DNA of 64,000 nt. Origin: Escherichia phage EC.P2. Under the pieces are notes generated by a model. The model was not told the DNA's origin. It saw only the letters and a list, made by a program, of their open reading frames with translations, and did not search any database. Position 1 is the first letter of the stretch, and every line of letters begins with the position of its first letter. The stretch is taken from the sequence record PQ631072.1; one strand, written 5' to 3'. This document shows, in pieces, positions 49,703-54,758 of the stretch. Made by a program: the position numbers and the translations under genes.

Positions 49703-50137
49703 TTAGTTTAAAATTTCTTTTGCAATGGTAGAAGCAAGTTTTCCATCATATTGATTCGGATACTCTGCTTTAAGGTGTTTCATCATATCTGGCATTTTCT
49801 TGCCTGTCAAGGCAAATTCTTCAGCAATAGCGCGAAGATCATCTTCAGATAGCATTTCTGGTAAATATTTTTCCAGAGTGGTGATATCACGCATAGCTCG
49901 CTCACATTTGCTAATGGAGGCATTAACTTTCTTAAGCGAGTCTAGTTCCTCTTTAGCGTGTGCAATACCAATCTTAACAATGTTAATCATAATATCGTCT
50001 TCTGATTTGTTTAGATTTGCCTTTTGAGTACGAGCAAGGTCAAACTCACCAATAATATTAGTTAACAAAGCAAAAGCACCTTTATCGGTTGTGCGTGCTA
50101 AGATACGATCTGCTTTCATTTGTGTCACAATAGACAT
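49703..50137 (-). CDS. GatB/YqeY-domain protein
   Basis: 144 aa; C-terminal GKKMPDMMKHLKAEYPNQYDGKLASTIAKEILN resembles YqeY family. Confidence 0.45.
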   Translation of the reverse strand: MSIVTQMKADRILARTTDKGAFALLTNIIGEFDLARTQKANLNKSEDDIMINIVKIGIAHAKEELDSLKKVNASISKCERAMRDITTLEKYLPEMLSEDDLRAIAEEFALTGKKMPDMMKHLKAEYPNQYDGKLASTIAKEILN

Positions 50138-50149
50138 TCTATTCTCCTC

Positions 50150-50722
50150 TTATTTGCTAATGCTTTGAATGTTATTTACAACACGGTTTATTGCCAGTGA
50201 AGCCCTAGGCTCTGCAATACCTGTTGCATAGATATAAGGATGACCTTTTGGAGACTCCCTCATACCGAATGAACCTAATTCTAAACCATATTCATCCTCT
50301 ACGTCAACCCCAATATTAGTGGGTACTAAATATGTTTTAACTCCATAATAAGTAGAGAAGAAACAACGCATAGCGTTAGCATACTCTTCAATTGTAGCAT
50401 CAGGGTAGAACTCAATCAACTCCAATTTCAAGAAAATATTAAAATGGGTATCATCTAAATTTTCTTCTGTACGGTAACATGGCGTTAGTGCAATATATGG
50501 ATTACCTGCTGCAAATTCAAAACCATCCTTCTCCATTTGCAGGAAAGATTGTTCTGCACTAGCTACATAGTATTTACCGTTAGGATGCCCTAATGGGCGA
50601 TCCTCTTTATTTTCTGGTAGTGTGTACGCCAGTATATCAGCATCCACGAGATATGGAACTTCCAACATTTGTGCAAACCGACCATAGTAATCAATAGCTT
50701 GAGCTATTACTGCAACATTCAT
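50150..50722 (-). CDS. hypothetical protein
   Basis: 190 aa; no confident motif. Confidence 0.4.
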   Translation of the reverse strand: MNVAVIAQAIDYYGRFAQMLEVPYLVDADILAYTLPENKEDRPLGHPNGKYYVASAEQSFLQMEKDGFEFAAGNPYIALTPCYRTEENLDDTHFNIFLKLELIEFYPDATIEEYANAMRCFFSTYYGVKTYLVPTNIGVDVEDEYGLELGSFGMRESPKGHPYIYATGIAEPRASLAINRVVNNIQSISK

Positions 50723-50970
50723 GATCGACCTCCGCTGCGGAATGCACGTTTAGTAATGTTTGACATAGTGATCAAATCTTGAAGCGTCATATCAGGAAAA
50801 TGCTGTTCAAGAACACCTTCAACAGCGCCTACAATATCTGATAACTCAATAAGTTGCATCAGCTTGCAATCTTGAGCAATAGCATCCTGAAGTTCATAAA
50901 GCTCTTCTTGAATCTTAGCAACAGAACCATATTCCTCTTTGCTAATCTCCTTCAAATGATACCCTGCCAC
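50719..50970 (-). CDS. putative MazG-like nucleotide pyrophosphohydrolase
   Basis: 83 aa; paired acidic helix motifs (IQEELYELQDA, LIELSDIVGAVE) resembling the EExxE core. Confidence 0.35.
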   Translation of the reverse strand: MAGYHLKEISKEEYGSVAKIQEELYELQDAIAQDCKLMQLIELSDIVGAVEGVLEQHFPDMTLQDLITMSNITKRAFRSGGRS

Positions 50971-50980
50971 TTTAACCCCC

Positions 50981-53755
50981 TTAGTTTACCAGTTTATTTA
51001 TATCTGGTAAAAGATTTATTTCACCTAAGAAATCACCTTCACCTTCCTCTAGCCAACTCTCATATGCTTGTGCATGATTATAGTTACCATCAAAAGAATC
51101 TGCAACAAATTTTTCTACAGTTTTTCGAGATGTACCAGCACCAAATACACCAAGTTTAATACTATTGATCGGTAAAGTAGGGCTTGTGGGTACTTTCTCT
51201 GTTGCAACACGGTTGATATCTATAATCTCCTGTACGGTTGTGTTCCATTGTAAGCATTTAACACAACGGGTATGCGCTACATACAGTAGGTTTCGCTCTG
51301 CCTCTTCTAGTCCTACCCATTCACCAGTCTTTTTATCATAGTTGGAAGGAAAATCATTAGCAACAATAACCTGATCCCACTCCAAACCTTTAGACTTGTG
51401 TGCTGTAGTCAGTGTGACTTTTGCTGTAGGAGAGTTTCTATGCGTTCTAAGTGTATGTGCTATAGTATTTGCCTTACCAGAAACTACAATGTTTAACAAG
51501 CGTTTAGCATCTGGATCAGCCTCTGCACACTCAACAAATTCATTCCAGTCTGCGTAAGGTAATACAGTTTCATGTTTTACTTTCTCAATATCTCCTCTCC
51601 GAAGAGCATTAACACTATCTACCATAGAGATAAAATCCCTGGTATCTACGTTAATAATAATTTCTTCCCCATCTGCAATACGATCCATTGCCTCCATAAG
51701 CAAGGTTAAATTCTTGCGAAAGATGATAGTGTAAGGTTTTGTATAGTCTACAACATCTGATTTGTAGCTACCTACTACAGTATCAAAGCCTTTACCAACC
51801 AAAGGATGACGCAAAGGTTCTTTATCACTTAAAATCATATTCGCAATGTTTGCCACTTTGGGGCCAAAACGGAAGCAAGCAGTTAATGGAAGCTCTGCCC
51901 CATACTTAGCTGTTTCAATCATCATATTAGAGCTACCTCTAAATTGATAAATGCAGTTGTGGCTAAGAATTTCATTACCAAAGAAGTTAGCAGTATCCTC
52001 TACTTCGATATCATAATAGATACCCTCACTATCTACAATGTCCACAATTTCTTCTGCCGTTACAGTATCACCATCTTTTACCAATACAGACATGCCTTTA
52101 AACAAACCCGCTGCCGGAATTAAATTATATTTGGCGGTGTTCACAGAGGACATGCATTCTTTTAAAGATGCAAACGGAACTATTTCAAGGATCTTTTGTG
52201 CAAAACTCAATGCTTCACGATAAGAGTTGAAATATTTACGTACACGGTAACGACCTTCCAATTTAGCAACACTCACGCTTACACCTGCTTCAATGAGTGA
52301 AGCATAGATTGGCATTTCACTTTCTGTCCACTCAAAGCTAACTTGTGTTCCTTTACAACTTTGTGCTCGCAAAGTCACTGTTAACATTTTTCTTTCATCT
52401 ACTGCACAATTGATGCTGTGCCAGTGTGGATAAGCAAAATGATAATCTTTATCCTCTAAAAGTTTAAAACCATTTTGTCCGAATTGTTCAAAGATGTTGT
52501 TGATTCTTTCTTGATTAATACCGCGTGAACTTGCCTCAAATACACAAGTAGGAATGCCATATTGTAAACTGTATGCCATTTCTTTTTCCATAGCAGCTTC
52601 ACGGTTTTCAACAATATCCAACACCCATAACTTCTGTGCTTTTTCAGAACGTGTACGTTGCCCCAGTTTAGAAAAACCTTCTTTATCATCGAATTTGTTA
52701 GTGATCCCTACTCGGAAGCCTAAATCTTTTCTCCACATTAGGTATACCACCATCTGATCATCTTTCAGAACATAAGGTGAAGCCCAAATACGATGGTTAT
52801 GTGTCATATCTAAAGTCTTACCTTTAGCAGTAATAACATTCCTACCTTTTGTACGTGTAGATAAAGTCTTATTTGTTACTTTTCTAAATGTAACTTTACC
52901 GTTAGAATAAGACTCTACCTTATCACCTATTTGCAGGTCTTTCATTGTAACCTGACCATTTTCGGTATTAAGTACCGTGTTTTCTGACACACATTGGAAT
53001 TCATCACCAACTACCACAATTTGTTTTGCAGATTTAGCATTCCGCAGAATAGACAAGAATGCAGGGTTAACATCCTGGAATTCATCCCCAAAGATAATGT
53101 CATAACCAAGATCAGCACCTGATAACTCAAACAATTTTACATAGGTGTCGTGCGTCATCAAAGTATCTGTGTTAGGGTCAATGCGCTCTCGCCACAATTG
53201 TTTTGCATACTTAACTACTTCTGTAATTAGTTTGTGTTCGTTAATACCTTTTCTTTTAATATCTGCAAGATGTACACCAGGAAAATGTTTACGGCTGATA
53301 AAAGGATCATCCGAAAATTCAAACTTACCTACGGTTTGCTTGATCATTAAACCAATCATAGCACGAGTTAAAAGTGTTTTCCCTCGTTTATCAATAAGAT
53401 TATTAATCTTAAATTTCTTTGCTATCTCACTACCTGTACCTGCAACGTTAACATACTGTCCTTCTGGTCGTGACAGTTTTGCACGTAAACGATGATCCAG
53501 GAATTGATAGCAAATGGAATGCAATGTACGGCATTCTACATTTGGTGGCATCTTACGCCGTGCTTCTTCTGCCATGCTTTTATTGAAAGCTAAGTAAAGA
53601 ATGCGATCTTCTGTACTGTTAGCCAGCAAATAAAGTGTTGACGTTTTTCCTGATCCAGATTTAGCTTGGATAGTTAAAAACCGATGATCTGGAAAAGCCT
53701 CCTTAATAGCTGTTTGCTCTTCTGTTGGAGTAAAACTCAACTCTTTCTTAGCCAT
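50981..53755 (-). CDS. superfamily 1 DNA helicase (UvrD/PcrA-like) interrupted by an intein
   Basis: Walker A TIQAKSGSGKTSTL, motif II DEFQD, motif III split as VVVGDEFQ / CIYQFRGS around a 346-aa insert; ATG at 53755 (MAKKELSF, AGAGAGG RBS) preferred over track TTG 53794. Confidence 0.75.
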   Translation of the reverse strand: MAKKELSFTPTEEQTAIKEAFPDHRFLTIQAKSGSGKTSTLYLLANSTEDRILYLAFNKSMAEEARRKMPPNVECRTLHSICYQFLDHRLRAKLSRPEGQYVNVAGTGSEIAKKFKINNLIDKRGKTLLTRAMIGLMIKQTVGKFEFSDDPFISRKHFPGVHLADIKRKGINEHKLITEVVKYAKQLWRERIDPNTDTLMTHDTYVKLFELSGADLGYDIIFGDEFQDVNPAFLSILRNAKSAKQIVVVGDEFQCVSENTVLNTENGQVTMKDLQIGDKVESYSNGKVTFRKVTNKTLSTRTKGRNVITAKGKTLDMTHNHRIWASPYVLKDDQMVVYLMWRKDLGFRVGITNKFDDKEGFSKLGQRTRSEKAQKLWVLDIVENREAAMEKEMAYSLQYGIPTCVFEASSRGINQERINNIFEQFGQNGFKLLEDKDYHFAYPHWHSINCAVDERKMLTVTLRAQSCKGTQVSFEWTESEMPIYASLIEAGVSVSVAKLEGRYRVRKYFNSYREALSFAQKILEIVPFASLKECMSSVNTAKYNLIPAAGLFKGMSVLVKDGDTVTAEEIVDIVDSEGIYYDIEVEDTANFFGNEILSHNCIYQFRGSSNMMIETAKYGAELPLTACFRFGPKVANIANMILSDKEPLRHPLVGKGFDTVVGSYKSDVVDYTKPYTIIFRKNLTLLMEAMDRIADGEEIIINVDTRDFISMVDSVNALRRGDIEKVKHETVLPYADWNEFVECAEADPDAKRLLNIVVSGKANTIAHTLRTHRNSPTAKVTLTTAHKSKGLEWDQVIVANDFPSNYDKKTGEWVGLEEAERNLLYVAHTRCVKCLQWNTTVQEIIDINRVATEKVPTSPTLPINSIKLGVFGAGTSRKTVEKFVADSFDGNYNHAQAYESWLEEGEGDFLGEINLLPDINKLVN
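51956..52993 (-). mobile_element. intein within helicase motif III
   Basis: Insert begins with Cys (CVSENTVLNTENG...), ends ...GNEILSHN, followed by Cys+1 (CIYQFRGS); 346 aa, large enough to include a homing endonuclease domain (not identified). Confidence 0.7.
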
Positions 53756-53756
53756 T

Positions 53757-54233
53757 TCAACCTCTCTTAATTTGTTTAACAAGCATAGGAACAAAATCTC
53801 GTTTTAAAATTTGTTCAATAATATGATCAGGTAGCTGTTGGAAATTATAATTAAATGCTACTGTCTCACCTTTAGGTGTTTCTACCCGCACATATAGCAT
53901 GTTACGAAGTTTATCCACTTGTGCTGTATATTCTAAACCACGTAATTGATGCATTGCAAACATCAAATCATCAGTTTCAGTTTGGAATCTATCCCTTGTT
54001 TGCATCAAGGATAAGGCAAAAGGTAGATTTTCCCTAAGAGCCACCTTCTTAGGCACTAATGAAGGGAAATACTCCCCAATAACTTCCTGTGTAAGCTGAA
54101 TACACTCTTTTTCAAGCTGGTTTTGTTCCTTGAGTTCACAAACACTTTTTTGTAAAGTGTTAACCTCTTTTTGCAAAGCTGCTAGTTGAGCATTTAACTT
54201 TCTTTTTTGATTACGACCAAAACGTTTAGACAT
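53757..54233 (-). CDS. hypothetical protein (N-terminal coiled coil)
   Basis: 158 aa; stop adjacent to helicase start. Confidence 0.45.
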   Translation of the reverse strand: MSKRFGRNQKRKLNAQLAALQKEVNTLQKSVCELKEQNQLEKECIQLTQEVIGEYFPSLVPKKVALRENLPFALSLMQTRDRFQTETDDLMFAMHQLRGLEYTAQVDKLRNMLYVRVETPKGETVAFNYNFQQLPDHIIEQILKRDFVPMLVKQIKRG

Positions 54234-54242
54234 ATTTTCCCC

Positions 54243-54758
54243 CTAGTAAAACCCCTTAACAATTTGTATTAACTCGGCACAACGGTTGACCAACTTTTCA
54301 TCGTACAATACACGTTGTGGCATATGTTGTATAATATACTCCATTTGCTCATGCCATGTCCACTTTTCTTTTTTGTCTGGGATAACATCACTAGCACGAG
54401 AATTATGTTTTAATGTTTGTATAATCCAATTGCTTGGAAAGTGCTCTCCACCTTTCTTAAATGGTTTATAGTGGCCTAGAGTGAATTGAGAATCCCCTGT
54501 TAGAGCACCCAATTTATTTAGATGGATAATCAAACTACGAAACACGTAGTATTCATAGATGTTATCCACCGTATAGCAAGCATAATATTTCAAGATGCCC
54601 TTATCTCGCGGATACTTACCAACATCCAGATTACACCAGTTGACATTTTCTGGATCATAGTGGTGTTCCTTAAGCCATATTTCTCTTTCATCAAAGTCTG
54701 GGTATATTACCGCCCTGCTTACAGAGTCAACAAGTGGAGATTGAGCATCAAAAAACAT
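54243..54758 (-). CDS. hypothetical protein
   Basis: 171 aa. Confidence 0.45.
   Translation of the reverse strand: MFFDAQSPLVDSVSRAVIYPDFDEREIWLKEHHYDPENVNWCNLDVGKYPRDKGILKYYACYTVDNIYEYYVFRSLIIHLNKLGALTGDSQFTLGHYKPFKKGGEHFPSNWIIQTLKHNSRASDVIPDKKEKWTWHEQMEYIIQHMPQRVLYDEKLVNRCAELIQIVKGFY

Follow-up and report, generated by a model that had tools for sequence, protein, structure and literature searches.

The 64,000-nucleotide (nt) stretch of DNA from Escherichia phage EC.P2 analysed here (sequence record PQ631072.1; hereafter the window) contains a helicase gene that is interrupted, within its conserved motif III, by an insert of 346 amino acids (aa). Our results indicate that this insert is very probably a bifunctional class-1 intein, carried by a phi92-like coliphage (Justusliebigvirus) in its UvrD/Rep-like helicase. 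Its two splicing lobes enclose a central domain that quite possibly represents a homing endonuclease family not yet described in inteins, which could be a highly divergent form of GIY-YIG enzyme or have a new fold. The intein itself is not a new discovery, as it has already been annotated in sister phages.

An intein splits motif III of a UvrD/Rep-like helicase

The window was assigned to a phi92-like phage of the genus Justusliebigvirus (Stephanstirmvirinae) by tblastn and megablast searches against phage genomes. The helicase precursor and its parts are arranged as follows.

50981-53755, minus strand: coding sequence of the intein-containing UvrD/Rep-family helicase precursor, 924 aa plus stop
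52994-53755, minus strand: N-extein, aa 1-254, containing Walker A (AKSGSGKTS), motif II (GDEFQD) and, as far as the insertion point, motif III (VVVGDEFQ)
51956-52993, minus strand: intein, 346 aa, class 1, with Cys1, block B T64-x-x-H67, block F D328 and block G H345-N346
52769-52993, minus strand: N-terminal lobe of the Hint splicing domain, intein aa 1-75
52109-52768, minus strand: central inserted domain, putative homing endonuclease, intein aa ~76-295, 220 aa
51956-52108, minus strand: C-terminal lobe of the Hint splicing domain, intein aa 296-346, ending in HN and scoring above the TIGR01443 cutoff
50984-51955, minus strand: C-extein, aa 601-924, opening with the Cys+1 codon (51953-51955), from which motif III continues as CIYQFRGS

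Read on the minus strand, positions 51956-52993 comprise 346 sense codons (CVSENTVL...GNEILSHN). The protein upstream of the insert ends with AKSAKQIVVVGDEFQ, and the protein downstream of it begins with CIYQFRGSSNMM. A plus-strand reading of the same interval was rejected, its translation being full of stops. A preliminary description of this DNA, made from the sequence alone, had placed an intein at these coordinates; the coordinates proved right, and the strand is corrected here to minus. The intein call itself stands, with Cys1, the terminal His-Asn, Cys+1, the length of 346 aa and the split of motif III all holding.

The set of splicing residues in the window intein is complete (Cys1, T64-H-N-H67, D328, H345-N346 and Cys+1). 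Pfam matched the insert to Intein_splicing, Hint and Hint_2, and a Hint fold was found for the window intein. Of the two NCBIfam intein models, TIGR01443 (intein_Cterm) was matched above its cutoff (20.0-23.3 bits, cutoff 15.6), and TIGR01445 was matched below it (20.3 bits, cutoff 24.5). Among the family members collected for comparison, 36 of 37 matched Intein_splicing, with a best E value of 3.5e-18. The structure model depended on the depth of the alignment: the predicted local distance difference test score was 52 with a 5-sequence alignment, which made the model unusable, and 93 with a 37-sequence alignment.

The exteins matched Pfam UvrD-helicase (8.4e-12) and UvrD_C (8.9e-11) as well as phrog_1967, 'DNA helicase' (3e-163). 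UvrD-helicase, UvrD_C and UvrD_C_2 all scored above their cutoffs, and AAA_19 was likewise placed on the flanks. The motifs of superfamily 1 (SF1) helicases are present, namely Walker A, motif II DExQD, motif III GDxxQxIYxFRG and the C-terminal motifs V/VI. The spliced or intein-less helicase aligns with human FBH1 (E value 1.4e-31) and with the UvrD proteins of D. radiodurans and E. coli across motifs II-III, and this alignment to FBH1/UvrD structures locates the insertion between the Gln and the next Ser of GDxxQSIYxFRGA, that is, in motif III. The helicase is of the UvrD/Rep-like type, and its closest solved relatives are FBH1 and UvrD. The UvrD-like assignment made earlier is thereby retained, and the mention of Dda is dropped, since nothing ties the protein to Dda.

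Intein-less orthologues and signatures of homing

The intein is polymorphic within Justusliebigvirus, being present in about 35 records and absent from about 20, in which the orthologous helicase is 578 aa long. Aligned with the window protein, the orthologues of KKE7M, EmilieFrey, alia and inny lack exactly 346 residues, and the sequence on either side of the gap corresponds position by position. The junction reads GDEYQ/SIYQFRGSQ in the intein-less orthologues (the slash marks the insertion point) versus GDEFQ-(intein)-CIYQFRGSS in the window, and the motif III DNA of an intein-less allele (EmilieFrey or KKE7M) reads GATGAATATCAG/AGCATCTACCAG at this point. The alignment to intein-free homologues proposed in the preliminary description thus gave an exact gap and continuous flanks; it also sets the spliced product at 578 aa instead of the approximately 579 aa estimated there.

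Nucleotide differences between alleles with and without the intein are concentrated at the junction. When three intein-plus alleles were compared with four intein-minus alleles over 1734 extein nt, 21 of 21 fixed differences fell within -27 to +51 of the junction, defining two flanks.

52994-53020, minus strand: upstream flank differing from intein-less alleles, 27 nt
51905-51955, minus strand: downstream flank differing from intein-less alleles, 51 nt

We read both flanks as either a putative co-conversion tract or a diverged half of the homing site. The intein-minus 'alia' and the intein-plus 'Justusliebigvirus alia' (OZ035770) were considered as a near-isogenic pair and rejected, as they are ~2% apart across the region; they do show a dense cluster of differences at the junction, matching the other alleles.

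A further line of evidence comes from the Phapecoctavirus DIJ07P2. Its exteins are 97% identical to those of an intein-less Phapecoctavirus and only ~72-76% identical to those of the window, while its intein has 96% nucleotide identity to that of the window and is 4/1038 nt off that of phi92. Informative sites are of the Phapecoctavirus type up to -4 and of the Justusliebigvirus type at -1; from +1 to +267 all of them but one are of the Justusliebigvirus type, and the Phapecoctavirus type returns from +276. The downstream conversion tract therefore covers 267-275 nt of the C-extein. This mosaic is the pattern expected of a double-strand break at the insertion site that was repaired from an intein-plus donor with one-sided co-conversion, and the transfer of the intein into Phapecoctavirus appears to be very recent. 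Three signatures of homing were observed, namely sporadic distribution, lateral transfer and co-conversion of flanks, and together these comparisons provide strong evidence for mobility of the intein.

Conservation and identity of the central domain

Two sub-domains can be distinguished in the central domain.

Intein aa ~80-185: sub-domain 1, beta-beta-alpha-beta-alpha topology, with the invariants Y84, M86, G92, R94, G96, R113, E117, W123, E138, S142 and P148
Intein aa ~200-290: sub-domain 2, an alpha/beta unit bearing a basic patch that is conserved (R250)

The listed residues of sub-domain 1 are kept in 83-85 of 85 sequences. Among the Justusliebigvirus copies, the ratio of non-synonymous to synonymous substitution rates (dN/dS) of the central domain is 0.03-0.05, a sign of strong purifying selection, and that of the Hint lobes is 0.06-0.13; a higher value (~0.2) was found for the central domain of Klebsiella phage KP2025. 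Because dN/dS is low, the invariants are intact and free-standing relatives of the intein retain them, the central domain appears clearly functional.

Its identity was not revealed by database comparison. When the window sequence, 37 relatives and the family consensus were compared with Pfam, NCBIfam and PHROG, no significant match other than to Hint was obtained. No LAGLIDADG or HNH motif was found by these three libraries in the insert of the window sequence, nor in the 37 relatives, and the 220-aa domain matches no nuclease family. Sequence searches of PDB with two central-domain profiles returned no meaningful match, and Foldseek searches against PDB and BFVD were dominated by Hint matches. 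Antisense or out-of-frame endonuclease open reading frames (ORFs) have been described in the literature inside some actinophage inteins; in the window intein, only three short ORFs of this kind were detected, with no family match. The homing endonuclease suggested by the preliminary description is therefore upheld as far as the strong evidence for mobility goes; the residues of blocks A, B, F and G that it named are present, but its LAGLIDADG or HNH motifs had no match, and a conserved, undescribed family stands in their place.

The endonuclease types reported for inteins in the literature searched are LAGLIDADG, HNH, Vsr-like and endonuclease VII-like, and, according to a 2006 survey, inteins were not known to contain GIY-YIG enzymes. 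The order of motifs in the central domain (Y ... R-x-G ... R-x3-E ... E), together with its beta-beta-alpha-beta-alpha topology, resembles GIY-YIG without reaching significance. In GIY-YIG domains such as those of I-TevI and the UvrC N-terminus, strand 1 carries the Tyr, strand 2 carries x-V/I-G, and helix 1 carries the Arg followed by the +4 residue; a third strand and a Glu in helix 2 complete a beta-beta-alpha-beta-alpha arrangement that the central domain appears to share. Two of the 37 members matched Pfam PF01541 (GIY-YIG), the lowest E value being 0.006 and the score below the cutoff, and the family consensus gave no match. One relative (P0119) matched the Pfam GIY-YIG model at a sub-threshold E value of 0.009 in the proposed register, and hhalign comparison with eight I-TevI-like catalytic domains from phage records gave a probability of 0.2-0.6%. 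The motif pattern is suggestive of a GIY-YIG identity but is not statistically supported.

A wider family with free-standing relatives

An exhaustive HMMER search of cluster representatives (50% identity) with a four-sequence central-domain profile returned 1368 representatives at E <= 1e-3 and 106 at E <= 1e-30, where word-indexed protein searches had given only 4 and 7 relatives with no Pfam labels. Ten of the best-scoring matches were compared with Pfam: eight proved to be UvrD-type helicases, and two, each ~335 aa long and free-standing, matched no Pfam family. A total of 152 sequences were retrieved, and 84 of them can be aligned with the window intein over its full length. Each of these 84 starts with Cys; 76 end in HN and eight in SN, and position +1 is occupied by Ser in 67 cases, by Cys in 16 and by Thr in one. 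In a set of 85 relatives, Cys1, H67 and N346 are each kept in 85/85, H345 in 77/85 and D328 in 78/85. The insertion site in nearly all of the 84 is GDxxQ/(S/C)IYxFRGA. The family, as collected with the central-domain profile, is located mostly at UvrD motif III in phages and bacteria and has no Pfam match.

More weakly related sequences were found in methyltransferases of Streptococcus suis phages and in the UvrD-like helicases of the SPO1 group of Bacillus phages, for which an intein is annotated. In BFVD, the models of two viral proteins, a helicase and a methyltransferase, match the whole intein with a template modelling (TM) score of ~0.6.

Three relatives (P0092, P0089 and P0070) occupy other helicase positions, after motif II (MVDE/CQDLN) or at ...DEAQDLNK/TQW, which suggests that the family may have shifted its target site within the same ATPase core. 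Six very long proteins, P0005 (2433 aa), P0006, P0007, P0008, P0009 and P0011, carry 2-3 copies of the intein family each; in P0007 there are two complete copies, one at motif III and the other at ...NQLIKHN/SKQ.

Nine free-standing proteins of 302-366 aa (P0002, P0003, P0013, P0019, P0038, P0048, P0067, P0071 and P0135) are homologous to the whole intein and start with Met. Cys1 and the block B His are gone, as is the terminal HN (its His, its Asn or both), and almost all the central invariants are kept. One of them, P0003 (L021:194-1270, JGI metagenome contig Ga0114364_1011452), starts 13 nt after the stop of a helicase gene, the product of which has SF1 helicase motifs V/VI at its C-terminus. 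Free-standing homing endonucleases adjoining their target genes are a known arrangement. These relatives look like intein-derived free-standing endonucleases comparable to yeast HO.

Proposed mechanism and comparison with known systems

Following established class-1 chemistry, splicing would begin with an N-S acyl shift at Cys1 aided by T64/H67, after which the thioester would pass to Cys+1. Cyclisation of Asn346, aided by H345 and D328, and a subsequent S-N shift would then yield the 578-aa helicase with the junction GDEFQ-CIYQFRGS as well as the free intein; in the spliced helicase, Cys would replace the native Ser after the motif III Gln. The comparative evidence is consistent with the central domain (aa ~76-295) acting as a site-specific DNA endonuclease. 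In that role, it would cut near the motif III codons when a co-infecting phage brings in a helicase allele lacking the intein, and recombinational repair would copy the intein and some flanking extein into the cut allele, which constitutes homing.

Inteins have been recognised in UvrD before, and 16 cases are known from bacteria (Novikova et al. 2016, PMC4760082). Inteins are also present in the UvrD-family helicases of the Bacillus phages SPO1 (gp34.33), CampHawk and Goe2. The similarity of the SPO1-group inteins to the window intein extends over aa 54-193 (tblastn, 30% identity), taking in a portion of the splicing domain together with the first half of the central domain, and both they and the bacterial UvrD inteins are only distantly related to it in sequence. 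The LAGLIDADG/HNH inteins (PI-SceI, PI-PfuI and TliVMA) have the same Hint-interrupted architecture and probably the same cycle of splicing and homing, and their Hint lobes superpose on that of the window intein. In contrast, the inserted domain remains unmatched: the query-normalised TM score of ~0.25-0.30 corresponds to the Hint part alone, and there is no match to a DOD/HNH profile.

Yeast HO is a free-standing endonuclease derived from an intein-associated homing endonuclease (PMC3384342). Its likeness to the present family lies in the free-standing proteins of 330-366 aa, which retain a Hint-like scaffold and the central domain and have lost the splicing residues. This likeness applies to the metagenome relatives and not to the window element, and HO differs in being a LAGLIDADG enzyme.

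Alternative explanations

Several points weigh against a splicing and homing intein as proposed here. The window sequence scores 33.3 bits against Pfam Intein_splicing, under the gathering score of 35.8. Ordinary recombination or a trans-acting nuclease could in principle drive the mobility, and the divergence of the flanks could partly reflect selection for extein residues compatible with splicing. The central domain, moreover, matches no known nuclease family or fold, and the GIY-YIG comparison is non-significant (hhalign probability <1%).

The last two points favour the alternative that survives best, which we nonetheless consider unlikely. It holds that the intein splices and that the central domain is not a nuclease but a DNA-binding, structural or regulatory module; the element would then owe its spread solely to general homologous recombination in co-infected cells or to a free-standing endonuclease whose gene lies elsewhere. 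Such a module fits less well with a central-domain dN/dS of 0.03-0.05 and with invariant Y, R, R, E and E residues typical of catalytic sets. A further point against this alternative is the sharply bounded, one-sided gene-conversion tract of DIJ07P2, which starts at the insertion point. The free-standing derivatives, furthermore, drop the splicing residues and retain the central domain, and no alternative-frame nuclease ORF lies inside the intein.

A decaying intein, still in frame but having lost homing and drifting towards loss late in the homing cycle, is considerably less probable. The polymorphism of the intein in the genus (~35 records with it, ~20 without) and the central-domain dN/dS of ~0.2 in KP2025 would agree with decay, whereas the low values in Justusliebigvirus with family invariants intact, and the very recent Phapecoctavirus transfer (4/1038 nt from the phi92 intein), speak against it. 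The notion that the 346-aa insert is an ordinary lineage-specific helicase sub-domain kept in the mature protein, which could appeal to the phi92 annotation of merely '2 discontinuous domains' and to the plain label DNA helicase in most records, is effectively excluded: the preliminary description had named homologues with the insert as a normal sub-domain as the outcome that would speak against an intein, and the opposite was seen, with ~20 same-genus records lacking it precisely.

Prior annotation and significance

The helicase gene is 97-99% identical to that in ~35 records, among them phi92 gp198. The records of JohannJBalmer (MZ501084) and PaulScherrer (MZ501100) annotate an 'intein-containing UvrD / Rep family helicase precursor' with mat_peptide features, and that of vB_EcoM_ZYD (PQ110661) an 'intein-containing UvrD'; because these sister-phage GenBank records annotate the same element, the intein finding is both correct and already known. 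According to the BASEL paper, the inteins were found by comparative annotation, and the original phi92 record describes only a helicase with '2 discontinuous domains'. Gene and insertion point are common to the window and the BASEL-collection/ZYD phages, and the intein proteins are 97-99% identical. The BASEL mat_peptide (MZ501084, L001:2802-3842) spans 347 codons, including the +1 Cys, versus the 346 given by the intein-less alleles; since the +1 Cys belongs to the C-extein, this span is one codon long. No functional or domain description of the phi92-type intein was found in the literature searched. A 2024 paper (PMC11162368) stated that no inteins had been reported in coliphages, which is contradicted by the phi92-like helicase intein present in GenBank since 2021.

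Two Klebsiella phages of the same subfamily, KP13-16 (OP617741, L018:1501-2541) and KP2025 (L017:1201-2238), carry copies of the intein at the same motif III site with Cys+1, at aa identities of 60% and 91%, respectively. The same intein, in a gene ~97% identical, also occurs in four records labelled 'Campylobacter phage' with C. jejuni as host (MG065639, MG065645, MG065656 and MG065689; A150, A145, C3 and A110a); either these host labels are doubtful or the records represent phi92-like contaminants.

The intein call itself adds little, given that the same element is annotated in sister phages and that UvrD is a recognised host. The analysis does correct the many records that name the 924-aa protein just 'DNA helicase' or 'hypothetical protein'. 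In the alleles of Justusliebigvirus and Phapecoctavirus, a clean record of homing in nature is available, for which the co-conversion tracts are mapped here. Homing is directly testable with the cultivable BASEL phages JohannJBalmer, PaulScherrer and EmilieFrey, which include intein-plus and intein-minus alleles and infect E. coli K-12. If the central domain is a nuclease, it would extend the short list of intein endonuclease types and may offer a new DNA-targeting scaffold.

Gene start and neighbouring genes

The mechanically called ORF spans 50981-53794 on the minus strand, with a TTG start at 53794. The ATG at 53755 is the counterpart of the annotated starts in phi92 and the BASEL phages and gives the 924-aa precursor; it is likely the true start of the helicase, and the ribosome-binding site annotated in phi92 precedes it. 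The TTG-started ORF overlaps the end of the upstream gene at 53757-54233 (minus strand). ARAGORN found no tRNA gene in the whole window, and a Pfam scan of the genes neighbouring the helicase gave no significant match. These neighbours, at 49703-50970 and 53757-54758 (both minus strand), are small, and the labels given in phi92 to neighbouring genes are MazG-like pyrophosphohydrolase, truncated seryl-tRNA-synthetase-like, YqeY-like and, for gp200, 'predicted HNH endonuclease-like fold'.

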